DNA from: Acidobacteriota bacterium
GTDB lineage: Bacteria; Acidobacteriota; Vicinamibacteria; Vicinamibacterales; UBA2999
NCBI GenBank assembly: GCA_031415235.1
Contig: JANORI010000531.1
Span: 1 to 36,117, forward strand
Direction of reading: 5' to 3'
Length of the DNA stretch: 36,117 bases
Shown here: one piece after another, positions 3,364 to 28,841 of the stretch
How the letters are laid out: each line of letters begins with the position of its first letter
Numbering within the stretch: the first letter of the stretch is position 1
Notes under the pieces: generated by a model
Database searches by the model: none
What the model saw: only the letters and a program-made list of their open reading frames with translations
Told to the model about the DNA's origin: nothing
Position numbers and translations under genes: made by a program

Positions 3364-6039
3364 GTGTGCGTGTCACGCACGCCTGCTGCACACCCGAGCG
3401 CACATGATCGCCAGCTGCCACAGTCCCGCGTTCCGCTGCCCAGTAGCGGCGGCGCACGTCCGCCGGTGACGGAGCCCGCCGTGCTGGGTCGTCTGACGGC
3501 GCGGCCCACCTCGGCCGCCCCGAGGCATGGGGAACCGATCACCGTCGGCGTGCCCCTGCCCCGCGGTCGGGTGCGCGATGTCGCCACCCTCGTGGCCGTC
3601 GTGGGCGAGGCGCTCCCGACGCAGGCCCGCGCACTCGAATATTGGACCGATGGCAGCGTGCGTTGGGCGCTACTCGACACGCGCGTCGACCTGCCGCCAG
3701 GCGGCGCCGAGATTCTCGTGCGCGACGATCTGCGGGCGCCTGCGCCGTCGCATCCGCTTACCCTCAGCCTGTCGGCGCGGCAGGCCTCGGTCACGAGCGG
3801 CTCATGGCGGGTCGATCTGGATCTGGACCGCGGCCATCCGTTTACGGCCGTGCTCGACCACGAGCGGCCGGTGATCGAGGCGCCGCTCGCGGCGGTGCTG
3901 CTGCGCGACGCCGACGGGCGCCCGTTGCCGGTGCGCTATTGCGCCATCGAGGTCGAGGTCACCGGCCCGCTGCGGGTGGTGCTGCGCATCGACGGGGAAG
4001 CGTCGGGCGCGCAGGGCGCGCGGCTCAACACGAGCCTGCGGCTCACGTTCGTGGCCGGGTTGCCGGCAATGGGCATTGAACTGCGCCTGCACAACCCGAG
4101 GGCCGCCGTGCATCCCGGTGGATTGTGGGAGCTGGGCGATGCCGGTTCAGTTCTTCTGCGCGACGCCGTCGTGCGCCTGCCGGTCACCGTCCCTCTTCAG
4201 ACGTGTCGCGTGTCGCTCGAGCGCGACGCGCCCCTGGCTGACGTCGGATTGCCGTTCTCGGTGACCCAGCACTCGAGCGGCGGCGAGCACTGGGCAAGTA
4301 CGGCGCACGCCAATCGCACCGGCGACGTCACCCTCGACCGCCGCGGCTACACCGCGCGGGCCGGCGCTGCCGACTCGGCCGGCCTACGCGCGAACCCGGT
4401 GGTGGTTGCCGGATTCCCAGGCGGCATGCTCTGCGTCGCGGCCGAACGCTTCTGGGAGGTGTTCCCCAAGGCGCTGGACGTGCGCGCCGATGGCGCGCTC
4501 ACGGTGTCGTGTCTGCCGGCGGGCCGTGATCCGCATGAACTCCAGGGCGGGGAGCGCTGCGACTACGAGTTCTGGATCGGGTGGGGCGCCGACGGCGTCA
4601 CCGACCTGCCACTCGAGTGGCGCCGTGCCCCGGCGACTGTCCTTCCGGAGGCGCAGGCGGTCGCCGTCGCCGAACTCCTTCCCGGTCTGGAGCCGGCTCG
4701 AGCCGGCGAGAATCCCGTGTACGAGCGCCTCATCGGGGCGGCCCTGGACGGCGCCGACACCTTTGTCGCCAAGCGCGAGCGCATCGACGAGTACGGCTGG
4801 CGGCACTACGGCGACCTGTATGCGGATCACGAGAACGGACCCGAGCCGGGCCGCCAGATCGTCTCGCACTACAACAATCAGTACGATGCGGTGCATGGTC
4901 TCGCGCTCCAGGCGTTGCGGCACGATGACCACCGCTGGTGGGAGTTGGCGCGCGACCTGGCGCGGCACGTCTCGCGCATCGACGTCTACTGGACGTCCGA
5001 GGATCGCGCGGCCTACAACGGCGGACTGTTCTGGCACACCGCGCACTACACCGCCGCCGGCCGGTCAACTCACCGGACGTATCCCAGGGACGCCGGGCTC
5101 GACGGCGGAGGGCCGTCGAATGAGCACTGCTATTCGCATGGCCTGCTGCTGCACCACGTCCTGACCGGCGACCCGACGAGCCGCGACGCGGTCGTGAGCC
5201 TGGCCAATTGGGTGATTGCGATGGACGACGGCCGCGCGGCGCGTTGGCCGCTGCCCTGGTTGAGCAGCGCCTCAACCGGCGCGGCAAGCGCGACGGCGAC
5301 GGGCGACTACCACGGTCCTGGTCGCGGATCCGCCAACACCGTCCTCGCGCTGTTGAACGCGCACCGGCTGACCGGCGATGAGCGCTATCTGGCCAAGGCC
5401 GACGAACTGGTCGCACGAGTCGTGCATCCTGACGACGACCTCGAGGCGCTCGTGCTGCTCGACACCGAGAGACGCTGGTCGTACACCGTACTGCTGCAGG
5501 CGCTCGGGCGATACCTGTTGACGCGTGTCGAACTGGGCCGTCGCGACGAGCGCTGGGACTACGCCCGCGCCGTCCTGCTGCACTACGCCGGATGGATGGC
5601 CGACCACGAGCATCTGTACTTGGAGAAGCCTGCCCATCTCGAGTTCCCCACCGAGACGTGGGCGGCGCAAGATGTCCGCAAAGCGGAGGTGTTCGACCTG
5701 GCTGCCATCCATGCCGCCACCGGCGCGGAGCGCGAGCGGTTTCTCGCCTGCGCCGTCGACTTCCACCGGCGGTCGCTCGCGATGCTGGCGTCGATGGCCA
5801 CCCGGACGCGCACCCGTCCGGTCGTGCTGCTGCTGTCGTACGGCTTCTCGAGGCCCTGGTTCGAGCGTCACGCGCGACTCGCGCCGCTCGACCCTCTGCC
5901 GCCGCGCGCGTGGCCGCCGCGCGCGGGGTTCGTGCCGCAGCGGACCGTCGCAGTGCGGCGCCTCGAGGCCGTCGCCGTCGCCGTCGCCGCCGCAGTGGCC
6001 GGGGCGGCCGCGCTCTTGCTGCGCCGGTTCCTCCTGTAG
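3364..6039 (+). CDS. Large PcRGLX/YetA-like (exo-rhamnogalacturonan-lyase family-like) protein with C-terminal hydrophobic tail
   Basis: The N-terminal motif GEPITVGVPLPRG...YWTDGSVRWALLD resembles the first domain of the PcRGLX/YetA family as I remember it. The middle region HYNNQYDAVHGLALQAL...GGLFWHTAHY suggests an alpha/alpha-barrel. The last 25 aa, AVAVAVAAAVAGAAALLLRRFLL, form a hydrophobic helix followed by Arg-Arg. The start is uncertain: GTG 3364, GTG 3466, or GTG 3481 (GGAG lies 6 nt upstream of 3481). No signal peptide is evident. Confidence 0.6.
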   Translation: MCVSRTPAAHPSAHDRQLPQSRVPLPSSGGARPPVTEPAVLGRLTARPTSAAPRHGEPITVGVPLPRGRVRDVATLVAVVGEALPTQARALEYWTDGSVRWALLDTRVDLPPGGAEILVRDDLRAPAPSHPLTLSLSARQASVTSGSWRVDLDLDRGHPFTAVLDHERPVIEAPLAAVLLRDADGRPLPVRYCAIEVEVTGPLRVVLRIDGEASGAQGARLNTSLRLTFVAGLPAMGIELRLHNPRAAVHPGGLWELGDAGSVLLRDAVVRLPVTVPLQTCRVSLERDAPLADVGLPFSVTQHSSGGEHWASTAHANRTGDVTLDRRGYTARAGAADSAGLRANPVVVAGFPGGMLCVAAERFWEVFPKALDVRADGALTVSCLPAGRDPHELQGGERCDYEFWIGWGADGVTDLPLEWRRAPATVLPEAQAVAVAELLPGLEPARAGENPVYERLIGAALDGADTFVAKRERIDEYGWRHYGDLYADHENGPEPGRQIVSHYNNQYDAVHGLALQALRHDDHRWWELARDLARHVSRIDVYWTSEDRAAYNGGLFWHTAHYTAAGRSTHRTYPRDAGLDGGGPSNEHCYSHGLLLHHVLTGDPTSRDAVVSLANWVIAMDDGRAARWPLPWLSSASTGAASATATGDYHGPGRGSANTVLALLNAHRLTGDERYLAKADELVARVVHPDDDLEALVLLDTERRWSYTVLLQALGRYLLTRVELGRRDERWDYARAVLLHYAGWMADHEHLYLEKPAHLEFPTETWAAQDVRKAEVFDLAAIHAATGAERERFLACAVDFHRRSLAMLASMATRTRTRPVVLLLSYGFSRPWFERHARLAPLDPLPPRAWPPRAGFVPQRTVAVRRLEAVAVAVAAAVAGAAALLLRRFLL

Positions 6040-8840: not shown

Positions 8841-10751
<1,911 letters not shown>

Positions 10752-10773
10752 CCACACGATTACGAAACTGATC

Positions 10774-10820
10774 GCCGTACGCGCGTGGTTTCTCGCGCGC
10801 CTTGCACCGACGTGTACGGC
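10774..10820 (+). terminator. Possible stem-loop after the amidotransferase gene
   Basis: The inner stem is cgcgcg (10780-10785) with cgcgcg (10794-10799) around an 8-nt loop, tggtttct. The outer arms are gccgtac (10774-10780) and gtacggc (10814-10820). No U-tract follows. Confidence 0.3.
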
Positions 10821-10953
10821 GTCTGCCCGGCAGGTTCACTGACAGTCTCGTAAGTCCCAGGCCGAGATCGGCCGTGGCGCGTCCGCTGAGCGTGTGCCGC
10901 GTGAGTTGCGCAAGTGCGTGCGCGCGCAATGACTTAGCGGCCATTTCGCGAGA

Positions 10954-10970
10954 TGGGCATACCGCTTGCT
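10954..10970 (+). promoter_or_regulatory. Candidate sigma-54 (-24/-12) promoter for paralogue 1
   Basis: The site tgGGCAtaccgcTTGCt has GG at 10956-10957 and GC at 10968-10969, exactly 10 nt apart. It matches GGCA at -24 and TTGCT at -12. It lies 94 nt upstream of ATG 11063 in the correct orientation. Confidence 0.45.
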
Positions 10971-11062
10971 CCTACGGTGAGCACGTAAGGGAGTCATTGC
11001 CCAAGCAGTTCCCCCGACTGCACGTGGCTCACCGAACTCGAATCATCAGCATCGGGGACATC

Positions 11063-13411
11063 ATGCATTCACGGTCAGCCACCGCCCTTTTCGTCGCCTT
11101 CCTGAGTCTCGTGGCGGCATCTTCAGTGCCCGCACAGACGGCGCCGCAGCAGCTCCCGCTTGTGCAGGCCGGCAACTTTGCCTATCTAGGCAAGTTCACG
11201 CTGCCTTCGACCGACTCTGCCGGTGTGCAGACAACGTATGGGGGCAACGCTCTGGCCATGGGTCCCGACGGCACGTCGCTCTACTACGGCTGCGTCTACG
11301 GCGGTGCGGTGGTACGCGTGAGTATTCCCACGATTGGCGGCGTCGCGACGCAGGTCGAAGCCTGCCGCGGCGTGCCGAATCTGGGCGCGATCAACCCGAC
11401 CGACCCGAATGCGAAGCTGCTCGGTGGCGTGCTGGCGTGGAGCGGACGGCTGATCCTCTCGGGCTACTCCTACTACGACGGCAACAGCAGTGCCGTCGCG
11501 AGTCACTTTGCCGGCACCAGGATTGACACCGCGTCGGGCCCGTTCCGCGTGGGCACCGAGAAGCCCGGCTTGGTGGCCGGCTACATGGGCGTCATTCCGA
11601 GCGAATGGCGCACCCTGCTCGGCGGACCCGCGCTCACGGGTCAATGCTGTATCTCGATCGTCTCGCGCAGCAGCCATGGGCCAAGCGTGAGCGTGTTCGA
11701 CCCGGCACAGGTCGGTACGACGTCGACCGTCACCTCGACGATGCTCGTCGGCTATCCCGAAGCGCACACCAATCCTGTGCTTGGCAGCTACGGCGCGCCC
11801 GGCCCCATGTTCAGCGGCGCCACGAGGATGGGCGGCGTGGCCTTCCCGGCCGGGACGCGGTCGGTGCTGTTTGTCGGGCGCCACGGCACCACCTACTGCT
11901 ACGGCGAAGGCACATCGAATCAGGCGCTCGACCGCCAGCCGGTGCCAGGGCAGACCGGCGTCATCTACTGCTACGACCCGACCGACTCGAACAAGGGCAC
12001 GCACGGCTATCCCTACAAACATATGGCGTGGGCCTACGACGCCGTCGACCTGCTGGCCGTGAAGCAGGGACTCAAGAACCCCTGGGACATCGTGCCGTAT
12101 GCGACGTGGACGCTGCCCGAGGTGACTGGGGGTAACGGCACGGCTTCCATTCGCGGCGTCACCTACGACCCGGCGACGCGCCGCCTATACCTCACGCAGG
12201 ACCTTGGCGGGCGCACGCCTGAAGTGCACGTCTATGAGATCACCAATGCGGTACTGCAGGGCCCCACCCCCGAAATCTGCGGCGACGGGATCGACAACGA
12301 CCTCGATGGTCTGATTGACGAAGGCTGCGGGTCCGTGCCGGTCGACGAAGTGTGCGGCGACGGCCTCGACAACGATGGCGACGGTCTCATCGACGAGGGC
12401 TGCGCCGAGCTGACCGGCGAGGTGTGCGGTGATCTGATCGACAACGACGGCGACGGCCTGATCGACGAGAACTGCGAGCAGGCCAAGGTGGAAATCTGCG
12501 GCGACAACATCGACAACGACGGCGACGGCCTGGTCGACGAAGGGTGTGTCACGGAAACGGCGCCGCCCGGCGTGCCCGTGGGGGTCCGGGGAACGGTGAA
12601 GCAGGCGACAGTGTCACTCCGTTGGTCGCCGCCGCTGACCGGCGGCGTCGCGACCAGCTACGTCGTCGAGGCCGGAGTGGCGCCGGGGCAGACGGTGTAC
12701 TCGACGCCGGTCGGGCTCGTGACGGCGGTGTCGGTGCCAAACGTCGGCATCGGCAAGTACTACGTGCGGGTGAGAGCGAAGAACGCCAATGGCACGAGTG
12801 CGGCCTCGAAGGAAGTGGTCGTGTCGGTGGGTTGCACGACCAAGCCGCGCAGCGTGTCCGGGCTGTCTGCAACGTCCTTGGGCGGACTCGTGAATCTGAC
12901 CTGGTCCGACGCCGATGGCTGCAGCGGCTCGACCTACTCGGTGGCGCTCGGCACGACGCAGGGCGCAAGCGATGTGCGGACACTGACGGCGGCCGAGACG
13001 ACGACGTCGACCCAACTGCCGCAGGGCACCTACTTTGCGCGTGTGACGGTGTTGTCGGATGTCGGACTGAGCGAGACCACCGACCTTCGCTTCGACGTGG
13101 GCGGCAATACGTGTGTGACGCCGCGCTTTCGCACCAAGCTCAAGTCGGTGGTGAGCGGCCGGCGCGTGAGCCTGGGGTGGACGCCGCTCGACCCCGACAC
13201 GGCCAACGCGGATGACCAACTGGCGCCCGTGAGCTACCTCATCGAAGCAGGCTCGGTGTCGGGTGCGGCCAACTTCGGAAAGGCCTCAATGGAGCGCAGA
13301 GGGTCATTCCTGAACAACGTGCCTCCCGGGGTCTATTTCGTCCGGGTCCGTCCGATGAACGGCTGCGGCGTGGGCCGCGCCTCGAACGAAGTCAAGGTGC
13401 AGGTCCGGTAG
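11063..13411 (+). CDS. Secreted multidomain protein, paralogue 1: signal peptide, unknown 370-aa Cys-containing domain, 4 Cys/Asp-rich repeats, 3 FN3-like modules
   Basis: ATG 11063 has GGGGA 5 nt upstream. The signal peptide is MHSRSATALFVAFLSLVAASSVPA followed by QTA. The FN3-like ends read YYVRVRAKNANGTSAASKEV, YFARVTVLSDVGLSE and YFVRVRPMNGCGVGRASNEV. The upstream 87 codons of the track ORF cover the promoter region and were dropped. Confidence 0.85.
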   Translation: MHSRSATALFVAFLSLVAASSVPAQTAPQQLPLVQAGNFAYLGKFTLPSTDSAGVQTTYGGNALAMGPDGTSLYYGCVYGGAVVRVSIPTIGGVATQVEACRGVPNLGAINPTDPNAKLLGGVLAWSGRLILSGYSYYDGNSSAVASHFAGTRIDTASGPFRVGTEKPGLVAGYMGVIPSEWRTLLGGPALTGQCCISIVSRSSHGPSVSVFDPAQVGTTSTVTSTMLVGYPEAHTNPVLGSYGAPGPMFSGATRMGGVAFPAGTRSVLFVGRHGTTYCYGEGTSNQALDRQPVPGQTGVIYCYDPTDSNKGTHGYPYKHMAWAYDAVDLLAVKQGLKNPWDIVPYATWTLPEVTGGNGTASIRGVTYDPATRRLYLTQDLGGRTPEVHVYEITNAVLQGPTPEICGDGIDNDLDGLIDEGCGSVPVDEVCGDGLDNDGDGLIDEGCAELTGEVCGDLIDNDGDGLIDENCEQAKVEICGDNIDNDGDGLVDEGCVTETAPPGVPVGVRGTVKQATVSLRWSPPLTGGVATSYVVEAGVAPGQTVYSTPVGLVTAVSVPNVGIGKYYVRVRAKNANGTSAASKEVVVSVGCTTKPRSVSGLSATSLGGLVNLTWSDADGCSGSTYSVALGTTQGASDVRTLTAAETTTSTQLPQGTYFARVTVLSDVGLSETTDLRFDVGGNTCVTPRFRTKLKSVVSGRRVSLGWTPLDPDTANADDQLAPVSYLIEAGSVSGAANFGKASMERRGSFLNNVPPGVYFVRVRPMNGCGVGRASNEVKVQVR
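12275..12547 (+). repeat. Four tandem coding repeats (about 72-75 nt each) encoding CGDGxDNDxDGLIDEGC modules
   Basis: The repeats are ICGDGIDNDLDGLIDEGC, VCGDGLDNDGDGLIDEGC, VCGDLIDNDGDGLIDENC and ICGDNIDNDGDGLVDEGC. They resemble the Cys-flanked Asp-rich putative metal (Ca/Cu)-binding motif, MopE-like or thrombospondin-type-3-like. They are absent from paralogue 2. Confidence 0.9.
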
Positions 13412-13447
13412 CGCCGGAGCGTCGGACCCACGCCATACGAGCAGATT

Positions 13448-13490
13448 TCGACCGCTGCTGTCTAGATTTGAAACGGACAGTAGCGGTCGA
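13448..13490 (+). terminator. 15-bp stem / 13-nt loop inverted repeat between the paralogues (a terminator, or an upstream activator site)
   Basis: The arms are tcgaccgctgctgtc (13448-13462) and gacagtagcggtcga (13476-13490). All positions pair, with one G-U. It lies 37 nt after stop 13411. The trailing ctcctttcc is only a weak U-tract. Confidence 0.5.
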
Positions 13491-13505
13491 CTCCTTTCCG
13501 CCAGG

Positions 13506-13542
13506 CGAAAAAACACGAAAACAGTCCGAAAACACCGAAAAA
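13506..13542. promoter_or_regulatory. Four helically phased A-tracts (CGAAAA repeats), predicted intrinsic DNA bend
   Basis: A-tracts sit at 13508-13513, 13518-21, 13529-32 and 13538-42. Their starts are spaced 10, 11 and 9 bp apart, and each follows CG. This is a conspicuous AT island in very GC-rich DNA, between the inverted repeat and the candidate -24/-12 element. Confidence 0.5.
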
Positions 13543-13567
13543 GGCGCGCAGTCACTCAGGGCCTATT

Positions 13568-13584
13568 TCGGCCCCTCTTTTGCT
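13568..13584 (+). promoter_or_regulatory. Candidate sigma-54 (-24/-12) promoter for paralogue 2
   Basis: The site tcGGCcCctcttTTGCt has GG at 13570-13571 and GC at 13582-13583, exactly 10 nt apart. The -12 element TTGCT is perfect and the -24 element is partial (GGC.C). It lies 58 nt upstream of ATG 13642. Confidence 0.4.
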
Positions 13585-13641
13585 GTGCAGACGCAGGGCT
13601 TGCACCTCAAAGCCACATCGCCGACCATTTGGAGCCCCTGC

Positions 13642-15672
13642 ATGCTATTGCGCCGTTTCATCGCCTTCGCCCTCGCCGCCTCCTTCCTGACGTCAGCAGC
13701 GACGGCGATAGCCCAGACCGCGCAACAGCAGCCTCTCGTGCAGGCCGCCAACCTGGTCTATCGGGGAAAGTTCACCCTGCCGAGCGCCGACTCCGCCGGC
13801 ATCCCGATCAGCTACGGCGGCGACTCGTTGGGCATGGGCGCCGACGGCGTGTCGCTCTACTTCGGCTGCGTCTACGGCGGCAGTGTGGCGCGCGTGAGCA
13901 TTCCGGTTATCGGGGGGGTCGCGTCCTTGATCGAGCCGTGCCACGGCGTGCCGAACCTGAATGCGATCAACCCCTCGGACCCGAACGCCAAGCTGCTCGG
14001 CGGCGTGCTGGCGTGGAATGGCCGGTTGATCGTCTCGGGGTATTCCTACTATGACGGCACCCAAAGCGCCGTGGCCAGCCACTTCGTCGGTTCCACGATT
14101 GCCGGTGCCTCGGGCCCATATCGCGTGGGCACCGACAAGGTGGGCTTCGTCGCAGGCTACATGGGCGTCATCCCTGCCGAATGGCGCGGACTGCTCGGTG
14201 GCCCCTCGCTCACCGGTCAGTGCTGTCTCTCAGTCATCTCGCGCACGAGCTACGGCCCGAGCGTCAGCGTGTTCGACCCGGCGCAGCTGGGCGTGACCAC
14301 GGTGGCCTCGAAGATGCTCGTCGGGTACCCGCAATCGAATCCCTCGCTCGGCAATTACGGCGTCCACAACCCCCTGTTCAGCGGCGCGACACAGATCGGC
14401 GGCGTGGCCTTTCCTGGCGGCACGCGCTCGGTACTGTTCGTGGGCCGCCACGGCACGACCTACTGCTACGGCGAAGGCACGTCCACGCAGTCGCTGCACA
14501 ACACGCCCGTGCCCGGCACTGGCGGCGCGTTTGTCTATTGCTACGACCCAACCGATCCATACAAAGGCACCCACGGCTATCCCTACCAGCACATGGTGTG
14601 GGCCTACGACGCCGTCGAACTGCTGGCCGTGAAGCAGGGCCTCAAGAATCCGTGGGATGTTCTGCCCTACGCGACGTGGACGCTGGGCGAGATGAGTGGC
14701 GGCAGCGGTGCCGCAACCCTGCGCAGCGCCACCTACGACCCGGCGACGCGGCGTTGGTACATGGTACAGGGCGGCGGCTCAGGCGCGCCGACCGTGCACG
14801 TATACGAGGTGACGAACGCGGTACACGGCCCTCAGGGCCTCACCGTGCAGACGAGCACGCTCGGCCTCACGTTCTCGTGGAACGCGCCCCCGCAGCCCGG
14901 CTACAGCAGTTACAGTCTCGAAGCCGGAACGCTACCTGGCTCCGCCAACATCGGCGCGCTCTCGCTGGCCGCAGGCTCCAGAACCGTGTCTCTGCCGCCC
15001 ACCGGCGCAACCGGCACATTCTATATCCGGTTGAAGGCGCTCTATCCTGACGGGGCCGAAGGCATCTCGAACGAAGTGTCACTCACGCTCGGCGCGACCG
15101 GCACGCCGCAGCCGCCAGCAAATTTTCGCGCGACGGCGAGCGGCACGAACATCGTGTTCTCGTGGGACGTGACCAACGATCCGCTGGTCACCGGCGTCGT
15201 GGCGGATGCCGGTACGGCCCCTGGCCTGTCCAACCTCGCGCAGGGCGCGCCCATCGGCAATAGCGGCAGCTACGTTGCAGCCAACGCGCCGCCCGGGCAC
15301 TACTACTTTCGTTTGAGGGCCGTGGGCCAGACGGGCTCGAGCGCGCAGTCGAACGAAGCCGAGATCACCATCGGCGGCGGTGGAGGGGCGGCTGGTGCCC
15401 CGTTGCCACCGACGCTCATGCCGCCGATCGTCACCGCATCGCGGACGGCCACCCTCAGCTGGGACATCAACAGCGCTGGGCCTGATCCCAGCAGCTTCCT
15501 GCTCGAAGTGGGCTCACAACCGAGCCGCGCTGATCTCGGCACCGTGTCGCTGAGCGGCGAGCGCTTCGTGGCGCCGGGCGTGCCCTCGGGCGTCTACTTC
15601 GTGCGCGTGCGTTCGGCCAACAGTGCCGGAACGAGCGCGCCCAGCAACGAAATTCGCCTCGTCGTACCGTAG
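13642..15672 (+). CDS. Secreted multidomain protein, paralogue 2: signal peptide, the same unknown 370-aa domain, 3 FN3-like modules
   Basis: ATG 13642 has GGAG 8 nt upstream. The signal peptide is MLLRRFIAFALAASFLTSAATAIA followed by QTA. The N-domain is collinear with paralogue 1. The FN3-like ends read FYIRLKALYPDGAEGISNEV, YYFRLRAVGQTGSSAQSNEA and YFVRVRSANSAGTSAPSNEI. Confidence 0.85.
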   Translation: MLLRRFIAFALAASFLTSAATAIAQTAQQQPLVQAANLVYRGKFTLPSADSAGIPISYGGDSLGMGADGVSLYFGCVYGGSVARVSIPVIGGVASLIEPCHGVPNLNAINPSDPNAKLLGGVLAWNGRLIVSGYSYYDGTQSAVASHFVGSTIAGASGPYRVGTDKVGFVAGYMGVIPAEWRGLLGGPSLTGQCCLSVISRTSYGPSVSVFDPAQLGVTTVASKMLVGYPQSNPSLGNYGVHNPLFSGATQIGGVAFPGGTRSVLFVGRHGTTYCYGEGTSTQSLHNTPVPGTGGAFVYCYDPTDPYKGTHGYPYQHMVWAYDAVELLAVKQGLKNPWDVLPYATWTLGEMSGGSGAATLRSATYDPATRRWYMVQGGGSGAPTVHVYEVTNAVHGPQGLTVQTSTLGLTFSWNAPPQPGYSSYSLEAGTLPGSANIGALSLAAGSRTVSLPPTGATGTFYIRLKALYPDGAEGISNEVSLTLGATGTPQPPANFRATASGTNIVFSWDVTNDPLVTGVVADAGTAPGLSNLAQGAPIGNSGSYVAANAPPGHYYFRLRAVGQTGSSAQSNEAEITIGGGGGAAGAPLPPTLMPPIVTASRTATLSWDINSAGPDPSSFLLEVGSQPSRADLGTVSLSGERFVAPGVPSGVYFVRVRSANSAGTSAPSNEIRLVVP

Positions 15673-15715
15673 TCGCGTCACACCCTGGCGCTCCCTGGGG
15701 CGATGACGTCTGGCG

Positions 15716-16765
15716 TCAGGGGATGAACCTGACGATGCGCGGCCCGAGTACGTTGGCGACCGCCATCGGCAGCCGCTGCCACGCCTGAATCGCGAACCGG
15801 AACTTCGGATTCTTCGGGCTCTGATCCGGCAACGCGCCTGACGCCACGTCGTATTCCCAACAGAGCGGCGAAGGCAGCGCGCCCCACTGCTTCTTGAAGT
15901 GGAACGTGCCCTCGTCTGGCGTGGAGCGTCCGAAATCCATGACGGCGCTGCGGTCGGCGATCGCCTGCTTCAGGACCGTCCAGTACAGCAGGTTGTTGGG
16001 CGACAGCGCGTTGAATTCGCGCAGCGACGATGCCCACGGTATCTCGGTGCGGGTGCGCCACCGCCACGTGAGGCCCGCCGCCACGGGGGCGCCGCCGTGC
16101 CGCACCACGATGACCCGCGCACGCTCGGGGAACGCATCGAGTACGGCCTCGAAGAGTCGCGGCGAGTAGACCGGCGTGCCCAGGTCGCGCATGTTGCGGC
16201 AGAACACCTGGTAGAACTCGCCGACCAGGGCGCGTCCTCCCACTTCGGTCGTCAGCTCGCTCTTCTCGGCCTTGCGTACCTGGTTGCGAACCTTGCGATC
16301 GAGCGCCGCCCATAGCGTATCGGCGTCGGCGGGCAGCGCCAGCGTCATCGCGACCTTGTGTGCCTTGGGGGCCAGCTGCGGGAACCGGCGACGGTCGTGC
16401 CGCAGTTCGAGATGCGAGGCGCCCTGTTCGCGTGTGTAGGCGCCGGCATGTTCAACCAGACGGGTCGCCGTTTCTTCGTCGTCGGCCACGACCCCGCCGT
16501 AGTTCACAAACGGCAGCGACACCACGAAGCGTCCGAACACCCGCGATGTGAAGAGCACCAGGGGCAGCACGCCCACGACTTGTCCGTCACGCACCGCCGC
16601 CGCGTAATACGTTCGGTGCCCAAAGACCTGCTCGAAGATCGCACGCCAGCGCCAGAGGTGATAGCCGCAGGCGCCGGGATGCACGGTCACGTACGCATTC
16701 CACGCGGCCTCGTCCTGGCAGGACACGACCGTGAGGGGCTCCCGCGTGCGAGCACCGTGTGCCAT
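15716..16765 (-). CDS. FemAB-related (GNAT-fold peptidyl/aminoacyl transferase-like) protein, PEP-CTERM-locus type
   Basis: ATG 16765 lies 15 nt after the deacetylase stop. The 349-aa size, the position as last gene of the operon and the sequence (...SLPFVNYGGVV...FYQVFCRNMRDLGTPVY...FHFKKQWGA) fit the FemAB-like family of these loci. The upstream 94 codons of the track ORF overlap the deacetylase gene. Confidence 0.7.
   Translation of the reverse strand: MAHGARTREPLTVVSCQDEAAWNAYVTVHPGACGYHLWRWRAIFEQVFGHRTYYAAAVRDGQVVGVLPLVLFTSRVFGRFVVSLPFVNYGGVVADDEETATRLVEHAGAYTREQGASHLELRHDRRRFPQLAPKAHKVAMTLALPADADTLWAALDRKVRNQVRKAEKSELTTEVGGRALVGEFYQVFCRNMRDLGTPVYSPRLFEAVLDAFPERARVIVVRHGGAPVAAGLTWRWRTRTEIPWASSLREFNALSPNNLLYWTVLKQAIADRSAVMDFGRSTPDEGTFHFKKQWGALPSPLCWEYDVASGALPDQSPKNPKFRFAIQAWQRLPMAVANVLGPRIVRFIP

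Positions 16766-24551: not shown

Positions 24552-24555
<4 letters not shown>
23914..24555 (-). CDS. Polysaccharide export protein (Wza/EpsA-like, Poly_export + SLBB)
   Basis: The sequence DYVIGAEDVLDVIVWREKDLSAQVMVRPDGMVSLPLLNDVQAGGLSVEQF is the classic Poly_export motif. The signal peptide is MTAPMFAILSLCTSVSLSAQ. ATG 24555 overlaps the TGA of the activator gene (ATGA). Confidence 0.85.
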
Positions 24556-25622
<1,067 letters not shown>

Positions 25623-25731: not shown

Positions 25732-25961
25732 ACTCAGGCCGCAAGCAAGTCAGCCGCCGGCATCGACAGTTTTCCCTAGGGTCAGGCGGTGAGGGGGGCT
25801 ACCAGCCCTGCGAAAACTGCCAATCTCTGGCCAGCCACAACCACTGCAAGGTGCGCGGCCACACGAACAATAGTCTACTAGAACGGGTAATTAACTGCTG
25901 TGTTTTCCTGACCTATGAAGCGCCAATTGGCTTGTTTTGTCCTCGGCGCCGCCCGCCCGCC

Positions 25962-28841
25962 TCAACTGTGGCCGGCCGAGCTCAGCAGCCTTCGAGCCTC
26001 GACGACCCGCGGGTCCTGGTCGCCGAGCCGGGCCGTCAGCACCACCAAAGCCTGGGTCAGTAGAGGCTGTGCCTCATGGAACCTGCCCAGCGCGATGAAG
26101 ACCGCCGCCAGCTCGACCTTGGCAGTGGCCTGCTTCCAGTGTCCTTCTGGCAGTTTCGCAGTGCGGATGGCCACCGCCTCTGTCGCCAGGTCTACCGCGA
26201 CAGCAGGTGTGCGCAGTTCGCGCATGAGCGCCGACAGCGCCAGGAGGGAATCCGCGGCGGCCGGATGATCCGAGCCGAGACTGCCACGCTGCGTCTCGAG
26301 CGCCTCCTGCAGCAGCCGGACACCGTCGGCGGGCCGCCCCGCGGCGGCGGCCGCCTCCCCAAGCACCGCCAGGCTCAGGGCGATCTCGAAGTGCCCGGCA
26401 GGCAATGTCCGGCGTCGCACGGCCAGCGCCGCCTGCAGCAGCGAATCGGCCTCGCCCGTGCGTCTCATCTTGAGCAGCACGCGCCCAAGGTTGTGCTGCA
26501 CGCGCGCGACGGCCGAGTGTTCGTCGCCGTAGGCGAGCCGCCGCACCGCGAGCGACTCCCGATAGAGACGTTCGGCCTCGTCGTATCGCCACTCGTCCTC
26601 GAGCAGGGTGCCGAGATTATTGAGCTGCACGGCGTAGTCGGGGTGGGTCGTGCCCACCCGCTTGCCGACGCTCGCCAGCGCCGCCCGGTACAACGGCTCG
26701 GCCGCGGCCAAGTCGCCTTGGTCGTGCAGCAGCGACGTGAGGTTGTTCAGGGCCGTGAGCGTGTCGGGGTGATCGTCGCCGTACGCACGTTGTCGAATGG
26801 CGAGCGCCTCGCGCAAGAGGGGCTCGGCCTTGCCGAACTCGCCTTTCGCGTTGAACACCTGGCCCAGATGGCCGAGCACCTGCGCCAAGCCGGGGTGTCC
26901 GTTGCCGTGCCGCTGCCGCCGGATGGACGTTGCTTGTTCCAGCAACGGCACCGCTTCGTCGAGCCGCCCCTGCTGGCGCAAGATTGACGCGAGGTTGTTG
27001 AGGCTCACGGCCACGACCTCGGCGGTCGGCCCCTCGTGGGCGCGCCAGGTGTCGATGGCCTCGCGCAGCAGGGGCTCGGCATCGGCGTACCGTCCGCGCT
27101 CGCTCAGGGTAAGCCCCAGGTTGTTGAGCGACGAGGCCACCGATGACGGCGAGGCCCCGACCTGCCGCTTCAGCGACAGCGCTTCGCGGTGCAGGGTCTC
27201 GGCTTCGTCGAGCCGCGCCAGCTCACGGTACGCCTCCGCTAGCTCTTCCATCGAGGTGGCGGTTTCTTCATGTTCTCGTCCGAGCGTCGAACGGCGCAAC
27301 TCGAGCCCACGCTCGAGCAGGGCCGCCGATCGATCGTAGATGCCCAGGCTGCCGTAGACGGTGCCGATCGTGCCAAGCAGGCGAGCCTGCACGATCGGCT
27401 GTCCAGCCAGTTCGGTGTCGAGGCGCTCGGCACCGCGGTCGAGCAACTCCCGCGCCGTGATTGGCCCGCTCCTGCTGCGGTCGGGGTCCGAGACGACGAA
27501 GAGGCCCGTCAGGAACGAGACCACTTGCTGCGCGGTGTCGCGTTCGCGCGCCGTGCGATCGCGTTCTTCGGCCAGGCGGGCGGCCTGCACCGAGAAGCCG
27601 ACCGCCGCCGTGCCGACGACGACGAGCAGCAGCACCGCCGCGCCCACGCCCCAGCGGTGGCGCGCCCCGAAACGCGCGGCCACATACCTCCAGGAGGCCA
27701 GGCGGGCCCGCACGGGGCGGTGGTCGAGGTGACGCCGCAGGTCAGCGGCCAAGGCTTCGACCGACGCATATCGTTCGGTCTGATTCTTGTGCAGCGCCAT
27801 GCCGATGATGGCGTCGAGGTCGCCCGCGAGCCGCGCACTCAGCCGGCTCGGCGTCAACCGCCGCACACGCGCGCGCTCGCCCGGCTCCGGGGCGCCCGGC
27901 ACGGGCTCCACGGCCGCGGCGCTCGGGCGACTCGGCGTCACGTGGCACACCACGCGCTCGATCTCCGCACTGGTCATTGTCGCAAAGCGGAGAGGACGGG
28001 CGCCGGTCACGAGCTCGTAGAGCAGCACGCCGAGCGCGTAGACGTCGGCCGCCGTGGTGACCTGCTCGCCGCGCACCACTTCAGGGCTGGCGTAGTCAGG
28101 GGTGAGCATCCTCCCATGAGCGGGAGCCGGCGAGTCCGGCGCACGTTCGAGCGTGAGGCGCGCGATGCCGAAGTCGAGCAGCTTGGGCACGCCCTCGGCG
28201 GTCACCATGATGTTGCTGGGCTTGATGTCGCGGTGCACGATCAGGCTGCGGTGCGCGTGGCTGACCGCATCGCACACCTCCAGGAAGAGCCGCAGCCGGT
28301 CTGCCACCGACAGCTGCTCGGTGTCGCAGTGCTGGTCGATCGGCACGCCGTCCACCTGCTCCATGACCAGGTAAGGCAGCCCTTCGGCCGTCGTGCCGCC
28401 GTCGAGCAAGCGGGCGATGTTCGGGTGCTCGAGCCATGCCAGGATCTGGCGCTCGGCGCGGAACTGGCGCACGCGCTCCGGATCGAGCAACCCACGCACG
28501 ACCTTGATCGCTACCTGCTGCAGGAACTCGTCGTCGTCGCGTTCCGCCAGGTAGACAGCGCCCATGCCCCCTTCGCCCAGCATCTTCACGAGCTTGTAGG
28601 GCCCCAGACGATCGAGCGGCGGCCGCGGGGTCGCAGTGGCCTCGGCGACCGCATCGCTGACGACGGCGACGAGCGGCCGTCCCGCGTGCTCGGCGACGTC
28701 GGCGGCGAGCAGGCCGTGCACCAGCTCGGCCAGCTCGAGATCCGGGGCCTCGCGAGCCACGAGCGCGGCTCGGACCTCTTCGGGGCAGGCCAGGGCCGCT
28801 TCGAACAACTCCTGCGCGGCCGCCCAACGTTCGGGGGTCAT
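25962..28841 (-). CDS. Membrane Ser/Thr protein kinase with large extracytoplasmic TPR-repeat domain
   Basis: Hanks motifs are GEGGMGAVY, VAIK, HRDIKPSNIM, DFG and PDYASPE. There is a single TM helix, GAAVLLLVVVGTAAVGF. About 10 TPR_12-like repeats follow (LNNLGLTLSERGRYADAEPLLREA...). GGAAGGGAG lies upstream of the ATG. Confidence 0.9.
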   Translation of the reverse strand: MTPERWAAAQELFEAALACPEEVRAALVAREAPDLELAELVHGLLAADVAEHAGRPLVAVVSDAVAEATATPRPPLDRLGPYKLVKMLGEGGMGAVYLAERDDDEFLQQVAIKVVRGLLDPERVRQFRAERQILAWLEHPNIARLLDGGTTAEGLPYLVMEQVDGVPIDQHCDTEQLSVADRLRLFLEVCDAVSHAHRSLIVHRDIKPSNIMVTAEGVPKLLDFGIARLTLERAPDSPAPAHGRMLTPDYASPEVVRGEQVTTAADVYALGVLLYELVTGARPLRFATMTSAEIERVVCHVTPSRPSAAAVEPVPGAPEPGERARVRRLTPSRLSARLAGDLDAIIGMALHKNQTERYASVEALAADLRRHLDHRPVRARLASWRYVAARFGARHRWGVGAAVLLLVVVGTAAVGFSVQAARLAEERDRTARERDTAQQVVSFLTGLFVVSDPDRSRSGPITARELLDRGAERLDTELAGQPIVQARLLGTIGTVYGSLGIYDRSAALLERGLELRRSTLGREHEETATSMEELAEAYRELARLDEAETLHREALSLKRQVGASPSSVASSLNNLGLTLSERGRYADAEPLLREAIDTWRAHEGPTAEVVAVSLNNLASILRQQGRLDEAVPLLEQATSIRRQRHGNGHPGLAQVLGHLGQVFNAKGEFGKAEPLLREALAIRQRAYGDDHPDTLTALNNLTSLLHDQGDLAAAEPLYRAALASVGKRVGTTHPDYAVQLNNLGTLLEDEWRYDEAERLYRESLAVRRLAYGDEHSAVARVQHNLGRVLLKMRRTGEADSLLQAALAVRRRTLPAGHFEIALSLAVLGEAAAAAGRPADGVRLLQEALETQRGSLGSDHPAAADSLLALSALMRELRTPAVAVDLATEAVAIRTAKLPEGHWKQATAKVELAAVFIALGRFHEAQPLLTQALVVLTARLGDQDPRVVEARRLLSSAGHS

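Follow-up and report, generated by a model that had tools for sequence, protein, structure and literature searches.

A putative sigma-54 promoter, a predicted A-tract bend and a conserved RNA hairpin between tandem secreted-protein genes of an acidobacterial XrtA locus

The DNA analyzed here, which we call the window, is a contig stretch of 36,117 nucleotides from a genome with a high G+C content of about 66%. Its closest public proteins carry the name Vicinamibacterales, and in database searches near-identical DNA was found in sediment metagenomes only. Profile searches of the window identified an acidobacterial locus of the XrtA/PEP-CTERM exopolysaccharide (EPS) type. A FemAB-family protein (TIGR03019), a glycosyltransferase (TIGR03013), and a chain-length determinant (TIGR03007) scored above their own cut-offs; an amidotransferase of the TIGR03108 family (619 bits) and an ATPase of the TIGR03015 family (250 bits) stayed under the curated cut-offs of 816.9 and 324.5, respectively. 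Within this locus lie two tandem paralogues, P1 and P2, whose products each have a signal peptide and FN3-like domains (Table 1). Their N-terminal domain is beta-rich, roughly 400 amino acids long, and without a Pfam match, and a fold search with a model of P2 did not recognize it either, as the FN3 domains dominated the result. No PEP-CTERM domain was matched in P1 or P2 using NCBIfam and Pfam. The N-terminal domain contains many invariant Cys, Trp, Asp, and His residues, has no family assignment, and is also found on contigs labelled as many different phyla (loci L010-L113). P1 has additional acidic double-disulfide (MopE-like) repeats. Upstream of P1 is an asparagine-synthase-family amidotransferase gene (8841-10751), and a potential hairpin 3' of this gene (10773-10821) was discarded as it was no more stable than shuffled sequences (z 0.17).

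Orthologous loci were gathered from genome and metagenome collections, comprising Vicinamibacterales MAGs and metagenome contigs. The gene order amidotransferase, P1, P2, FemAB, deacetylase, and sugar transferase is conserved across these loci, the orthologous proteins share only about 50-60% identity, with an average of 52% for the intergenic DNA. This gave 16 orthologous intergenic regions, i.e., 14 tandem P1-P2 loci and two regions, L003 and L008, in which a third paralogue is found in another context with no P1 upstream. The third paralogue occurs in the same MAGs as the tandem loci L004 and L009 (L003 5790-5870, L008 5800-5880). In the tandem loci the P1-P2 intergenic gap measures about 220-270 nt, and in the window it is 230 bp long and forms a three-part composite control region. 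A promoter scan of 10600-16000 found no sigma-70-like promoter, and an Rfam search over 10600-14000 returned nothing but a chance miRNA-like match on the hairpin described below (E 0.55).

Table 1. Features of the P1-P2 region and the candidate activator gene (positions in the window)
Feature	Position	Strand	Basis or remark
Conserved P1 upstream block ACAGTCTCGTAA	10842-10853		P1 ortholog alignment
Conserved P1 upstream block GCGCGCAATGACTTAGC, also given as GCGCGCAATCACTTAGC	10922-10938		P1 ortholog alignment
Putative P1 sigma-54 promoter GGGCATACCGCTTGCT	10955-10970	+	Near-consensus; top PWM match of the window
Paralogue 1 (P1)	11063-13411	+	Upstream gene; transcript would end at the hairpin
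Conserved box TACGAGCA, consensus ATCGTG[AC]A	13436-13443	+	About 5-10 nt 5' of the hairpin
RNA hairpin	13448-13490	+	37 nt past the P1 stop; fold stability, covariation, G-U asymmetry
Four phased A-tracts (CGAAAA units, spacing 10/11/9 bp)	13506-13543	none	About -88 to -52
Sigma-54 type -24/-12 element CGGCCCCTCTTTTGCT	13569-13584	+	Consensus scan, PWM, 16 orthologs
P2 predicted 5' leader	13595-13641	+	47 nt; sequence
Paralogue 2 (P2)	13642-15672	+	Secreted; signal peptide, N-terminal domain, three FN3-like domains
Activator gene (bEBP)	24552-25622	-	AAA+ domain PF00158, E 2e-67

The initial annotation had read the P1-P2 gap as the complete architecture of a promoter that depends on an AAA+ activator (bEBP), with a dyad as enhancer, a phased A-tract bend, and a -24/-12 element. 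"Complete" is too strong, since the enhancer part is at most a candidate. The GG-N10-GC spacing with TTGCT was described correctly: in CGGCCCCTCTTTTGCT the GG is located at 13570-71 and the GC at 13582-83, with a gap of exactly 10 nt. The element has 2 mismatches to TGGCAC-N5-TTGCW (11 specified positions), and its -24 box, GGCCCC instead of GGCACG, is a weak match. Taken alone, this match in the window is not above chance. Allowing up to 3 mismatches, the consensus was matched 137 times in the window versus 134 times expected from shuffles, and more than 12 of the window matches have 2 mismatches or fewer. A control with a +1 spacing (GGC-N8-TTGC) gave 9 sites versus 8.5 expected. The sigma-54 position weight matrix (PWM) scan that had been proposed, for which we used an approximate matrix based on the Barrios consensus, placed the site at rank 22 of about 72,000 positions in the window, with a shuffle p of about 0.075 within the intergenic region.

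Although the scan does not single out the site in the window, the best + strand PWM match precedes the start codon by 54-83 nt, in most cases by 59-67 nt, in all 16 orthologous regions. When these sites were stacked, the GG was present in 16/16, the next C in 14/16, and the bases of T-T-G-C-T in 15, 16, 16, 16, and 14 of the 16 regions, giving a P2-type consensus of cGGCcc-N5-TTGCT in which the GC is kept throughout and TTGCT in 14-16 of 16. The flanks are unconserved, leaving the element as an island of invariance (alignment A2). Because the orthologs are phylogenetically related, a Fisher-combined p-value across the 16 overstates their independence and is too optimistic. The island-of-invariance pattern and the fixed position argue that the P2 site, though weak by score, is a real sigma-54 promoter, and the original assignment of a sigma-54 type promoter to P2 agrees with the invariance of the element in 16/16 regions. 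The transcription start is predicted near 13594-13595, and the earlier distances, counted from a start at about 13595, are correctly calculated. In a search of RNA sequencing runs, none contained the region. A Shine-Dalgarno sequence GGAG is located at 13631-13634, 7 nt ahead of the ATG at 13642, and GGAG or GGGG is kept ahead of the start codon in the orthologs. The window has no rpoN gene; a sigma-54 activator gene is present in it (Table 1).

That P2 has no promoter and is expressed by read-through from the P1 promoter only, the GG-N10-GC being fortuitous, is very improbable. This reading draws on the P2 site not being significant by itself and on the hairpin behind P1, which has no U-tract so that its termination may be leaky; yet the element is invariant and at the same position in 16/16 orthologs, and is also found in L003 and L008, which have no P1 upstream. 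Assignment of the conserved element to an ECF-sigma promoter with a -35 of GGAAC is more doubtful still, and we give it little credence. GGAAC does occur between GG and TTGC in a few orthologs, and a relative has an ECF-sigma gene in its syntenic module, but GGAAC is missing from the window and most orthologs, there is no conserved -10 at 16-17 nt after it, and invariance falls precisely on the GG and the GC with their 10-nt separation. Finally, a T-rich run follows a small hairpin, GGGCCtatttcGGCCC (13559-13574), whose sequence overlaps with the -24 element. This hairpin was called in the terminator scan, and one could regard GGGCCtatttcGGCCC followed by CTCTTTTGCT (13559-13584) as an intrinsic terminator, with the -24/-12 likeness as a by-product. 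However, the scan gave 3 such sites versus 3.4 expected, and the orthologs do not retain the small hairpin, as opposed to GG and TTGCT, making a terminator here hardly credible.

Judged by sequence, each paralogue has its own -24/-12 element. The P1 site is much stronger than the P2 site by score, and GGGCAC-N5-TTGCT is found 92-95 nt before the start codon in 10/10 P1 orthologs. The comparative evidence thus presents the tandem secreted-protein genes P1 and P2 as separate sigma-54 transcription units. The 190 nt upstream of P1 can be aligned without gaps across the orthologs, and the two conserved blocks in this region (Table 1) are candidate activator sites. K-mers common to the P1 and P2 upstream regions were generic GC-rich words alone. 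The hexamer GACAGT is present upstream of 3/3 candidate sigma-54 promoters (3 of its 9 occurrences in the window), but it was not relied on, since it was picked post hoc and is not conserved in the P2 orthologs or in the relative L122; it also sits too near the promoter of the bEBP gene.

In the wider P1/P2 family, 125 homologs from many lineages were scored, and sites with a score of at least 12 were found in 24 upstream regions, versus 2 in the in-gene control and 2 on the opposite strand. Sigma-54 sites upstream of family members are enriched well beyond Vicinamibacterales.

The dyad is present as originally described, with arms of 15 nt each, 13448-13462 (TCGACCGCTGCTGTC) and 13476-13490 (GACAGTAGCGGTCGA), 13 nt between them, and 14/15 complementarity. 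The single mismatch corresponds to a G-U pair in RNA. At 93%, its complementarity is higher than that of any of the 25 longest inverted repeats in a listing of the window, which reach at most 88%. As RNA, the region folds into a 16-bp stem with an 11-nt loop (z -3.67), and 0/200 shuffles were as stable. The hairpin is found in 14/14 tandem loci, 17-66 nt past the P1 stop codon. In alignment A3, using the 16-pair stem, 90% of the stem cells were paired versus 31-58% in slid controls, and compensatory, two-sided changes were seen in 7 of the 16 pairs (22 cells), with a covariation score that was reached in 0/500 shuffles. Among the 14 core pairs there were 20 G-U cells versus 2 A-C cells. Where RNA of the + strand has a G-U pair, that of the - strand would have A opposite C, and the half-sites of the duplex DNA would be asymmetric, so this imbalance indicates that the hairpin is selected as + strand RNA.

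Several properties set this hairpin apart from a canonical intrinsic terminator, which it is not: no U-run follows the stem and the terminator scan did not call it at 13448-13490. The loop measures 9-11 nt across the loci. The 12 nt past the stem contain 4 T in the window, and in the orthologs they average 31% T, a mild enrichment. The hairpin is probably a terminator, insulator, or 3'-end stabilizer of the P1 transcript.

The initial annotation had favored the dyad as the enhancer (UAS) of the activator and had mentioned a P1 terminator as the alternative. We consider it rather unlikely that the dyad, alone or besides an RNA role, is the DNA enhancer of a dimeric bEBP acting on P2, although a number of observations are in its favor. 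The center of the dyad lies about 125 bp upstream of the predicted start, which is a typical UAS position, and the distance from the hairpin center to the GG is 93-97 bp in 11/14 orthologs. Sequence conservation, beyond pairing, is seen in the upper stem (GCTGT...ACG) and in part of the loop: the left-arm GCTGT and the ACG at the loop/stem junction are invariant across orthologs, and six loops read A(A/T)TTGAAAC. Moreover, the third paralogue of L003 and L008 retains the box, the left arm, and a loop-like sequence despite loss of the hairpin. Against an enhancer speaks the 20 to 2 ratio of G-U to A-C, since the two half-sites often differ as DNA even where pairing in the RNA is maintained. The window, L120, and L007 have hairpin-GG distances of 101, 109, and 115 bp, respectively, and the dyad of the window has been shifted about half a helical turn relative to most orthologs through A-tract expansion. 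In addition, the dyad core occurs once in the window and in 0/10 P1 upstream regions, and the C-terminal 100 residues of the bEBP match no known DNA-binding domain. The RNA-stem evolution and the absence of the core motif upstream of the P1 promoter make the P1 3'-end hairpin, i.e., a terminator or insulator, the best reading of the dyad, and what had been offered as the alternative is, in view of the covariation and the G-U asymmetry, the better of the two. A dyad at the "right" UAS position can thus prove to be RNA-selected from G-U asymmetry alone, which calls for caution in reading such repeats.

The conserved box 5' of the hairpin is accounted for by neither the hairpin nor the promoter. 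Its G12 and A14 are invariant in 14 orthologs (alignment A3, columns 7-14), and every one of the 14 tandem loci has the box ATCGTG[AC]A, as does the region upstream of the third paralogue in L008. The upstream region of the third paralogue keeps the -24/-12 element, an A-rich spacer, the box, and the GCTGT...ACG stretch, and has a different, weaker structure where the P1-type hairpin would be. A co-occurring strain (run X7) shows several differences in and around the hairpin, one of which, A13479C, breaks a pair.

Between the hairpin and the -24/-12 element, the four A-tracts were located correctly from the start, at 13508, 13518, 13529, and 13538, with run lengths of 6, 4, 4, and 5 and a CG before each. 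Their centers are 9, 11, and 9.5 bp apart, which is in helical phase. The window contains 12 runs of at least four A in total, 4 of them in this cluster, and four such runs within 40 bp were seen in 0/300 first-order Markov simulations. At 47% GC, the 60-bp segment at 13508 ranks third lowest in the window, which bears out the description of an unusual AT island. Tandem Repeats Finder (TRF) reported a period of about 11 over the block, consistent with tandem duplication of the CGAAAAC unit.

It is well established that A-tracts of 4-6 nt in helical phase bend DNA without protein. Calculation of the curvature, as suggested originally, gave the A-tract block as the top predicted peak of the window: at 13525 the dinucleotide wedge model gives 46 degrees per 30 bp, compared with a window mean of 12.8 (sd 6.8), values that are based on the Bolshoy wedge angles and are indicative only. 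Of the expected IHF site or intrinsic bend, the bend was supported by the highest curvature peak, and no IHF consensus was found in the spacer. The reading of a P2 promoter with an intrinsic bend upstream is well supported by conservation, and the P2 region would offer a clean natural case of a phased A-tract bend replacing an IHF site in a high-GC genome.

In the ortholog comparison that had been proposed as a check, the -24/-12 element is kept in 16/16 regions. The A-tract sequence is not conserved, but this spacer stays A/T-enriched, and in most orthologs its AA/TT/AT steps show a significant periodicity of about 10 bp. In L007, the closest relative, the A-tract block has expanded differently, and C[GA]AAA units are kept. 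The co-occurring strain (run X7, 13380-13680) diverges completely after 13526, inside the block, and the block therefore appears to be hypervariable within the population and fast-evolving.

The four CGAAAAC units might also be direct-repeat binding sites with a 10-11 bp period, or sites for a nucleoid protein, rather than a passive bend. A winged-helix response regulator is an example of such a direct-repeat binder, the repeat unit extends beyond the A-run to include the CG before each tract, and C[GA]AAA units persist in L007. However, none of the other 12 orthologs conserves the units, there being A/T periodicity only, they differ in the co-occurring strain, and phased A-tracts need no protein to bend DNA. 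Protein-binding repeats are therefore an improbable explanation, and we favor the intrinsic bend.

The initial annotation had named the bEBP gene as the source of the activator (Table 1). The gene and its AAA+ domain are there, but its assignment to the promoter was by proximity only. The protein is 82-94% identical in many Vicinamibacterales. Neither a receiver nor any other sensory domain is present in it, and the C-terminal 100 residues showed no Pfam match and no detectable Fis-type HTH. Compared with the PrsR model TIGR02915 it scores 273 bits, below the cut-off of 502.6, and only the AAA+ part matches. A Ser/Thr protein kinase gene with TPR repeats (25962-28841, -) is directly upstream of it. 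In the relative L122 the module reads sucA-sucB-ECF sigma-Ser/Thr kinase(TPR)-bEBP, followed by a second bEBP and unrelated genes. As the L122 module has no EPS locus alongside, proximity is what connects the bEBP with the P1 and P2 promoters, for which it is only a candidate cognate activator. The missing sensory domain, the adjoining kinase, and the ECF sigma module of L122 suggest that the bEBP is controlled in trans, by phosphorylation or a partner protein.

Upstream of the bEBP gene there is a candidate -24/-12 element, CGGCCTGAGTCTTGCT (25741-25726, -), with PWM rank 4 in the window, of which the GG-N10-GC/TTGCT is kept in L122. The bEBP gene may thus itself be sigma-54 dependent. A second, adjacent -24/-12-like site, CGGCGGCTGACTTGCT, is located at 25759-25744 (-); both sites are about 100-120 nt upstream of the bEBP start codon. 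A 13-nt dyad (25762-25774/25812-25824) is found upstream of these sites, as is the lowest-GC stretch of the window (40% GC at 25860).

Taken together, we consider it likely that one gap combines a P1 hairpin, a P2 sigma-54 promoter, and an A-tract bend. What the analysis demonstrates is that the elements are present, that there is conservation of the -24/-12 element, of pairing in the hairpin, and of the A/T periodicity, and that the pattern of substitutions marks the hairpin as RNA-selected. In the model, P1 transcription would start from its own strong sigma-54 promoter at 10955-10970 and would stop at, or be damped by, the GC-rich hairpin at 13448-13490, which may shield P2 from read-through and/or protect the 3' end of the P1 mRNA. 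P2 would be transcribed from its own, presumably sigma-54-dependent promoter at 13569-13584, with a start near 13594-95 resulting in a 47-nt leader with a GGAG ribosome-binding site. The A-tracts at 13508-13542 would bend the DNA about -88 to -52, in place of an IHF site, and this bend may help an upstream-bound AAA+ activator to contact the closed sigma-54 complex; activation of the promoter would be by such a bEBP.

A more far-reaching version is conceivable, in which the hairpin RNA ends the P1 transcript and the same DNA is the P2 enhancer, about 95 bp from the -24 element. The conserved 5' box and the partly conserved loop would then belong to this dual-use element. The widespread family of beta-rich plus FN3 secreted proteins would form a sigma-54 regulon at XrtA loci outside Proteobacteria, with a new enhancer motif of its own and a receiver-less activator under the adjacent Ser/Thr kinase. 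As a whole, this combination of a dual-use element with such a regulon and a kinase-controlled activator strikes us as unlikely.

Among enhancer-dependent sigma-54 promoters, those with bent DNA between the UAS and the promoter, such as glnAp2, nifH, Pu, and pspA, are either IHF-assisted or intrinsically curved. The P2 region resembles this class in its GG-N10-GC with TTGCT, the curved DNA at about -50 to -90, the long upstream non-coding region, and the nearby bEBP gene. It differs in that there is no IHF consensus and the bend consists of A-tracts in a 66% GC genome, in a UAS that is at best a candidate, in a -24 box of GGCCC instead of GGCAC, and in a candidate activator without a receiver domain or recognizable HTH. 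As regards the hairpin, U-tract-poor hairpins have been proposed as terminators for high-GC bacteria. The P1 hairpin shares with Rho-independent terminators a stable GC-rich stem soon after the stop codon, coding-strand selection, and a mildly T-enriched tail; unlike them it has a 9-11 nt, partly sequence-conserved loop, where 3-8 nt would be expected, no U-run, and a conserved box 5' of the stem, and a standard scan does not call it.

The closest described system is the proteobacterial PEP-CTERM box, with which the logic and the geometry of the sigma-54 site are shared. In this box, motif 1, of 17 nt with TTTACA at its end, is separated by about 63 nt from a sigma-54 motif, which is located about 71 nt ahead of the start codon of PEP-CTERM genes in EPS loci (Haft et al. 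2006, PMC1569441). Both motifs are found in front of single-gene operons in XrtA loci, the regulators being PrsK, PrsR, and PrsT, and they were reported in Proteobacteria only (Haft et al. 2006, PMC1569441). For one such gene, pepA, RpoN dependence has been established experimentally (Xia et al. 2023, PMC9850573). As in the PEP-CTERM box system, single secreted-protein genes are found inside an XrtA/PEP-CTERM EPS locus, each behind more than 200 nt of non-coding DNA with a sigma-54 site located about 60-70 nt ahead of the start codon. Unlike it, the locus is acidobacterial, the products have no PEP-CTERM anchor, and the bEBP falls below the PrsR (TIGR02915) cut-off and has no receiver, with no PrsK seen. 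Motif 1 TTTACA, compared by its description (PMC1569441), is absent from 13412-13568 and not conserved in the orthologs. Motif 1, a PEP-CTERM product, and PrsR thus being missing, the P2 region is not a member of the PEP-CTERM box. The P2 control region is best filed as a bEBP/sigma-54 promoter with an intrinsic bend in an acidobacterial XrtA locus. Nothing in the P1-P2 gap is outside known mechanisms, and its regulatory layout is ordinary. With this locus, sigma-54 control of matrix proteins, described for Proteobacteria, would also cover Vicinamibacterales and proteins that lack a PEP-CTERM anchor.

Elsewhere in the window, an 891-amino acid open reading frame (3364-6039, +) weakly matches the N-terminal and central PcRGLX-like (rhamnogalacturonan-lyase-like) domains, and possibly encodes a polysaccharide-degrading or -modifying enzyme within the EPS locus.
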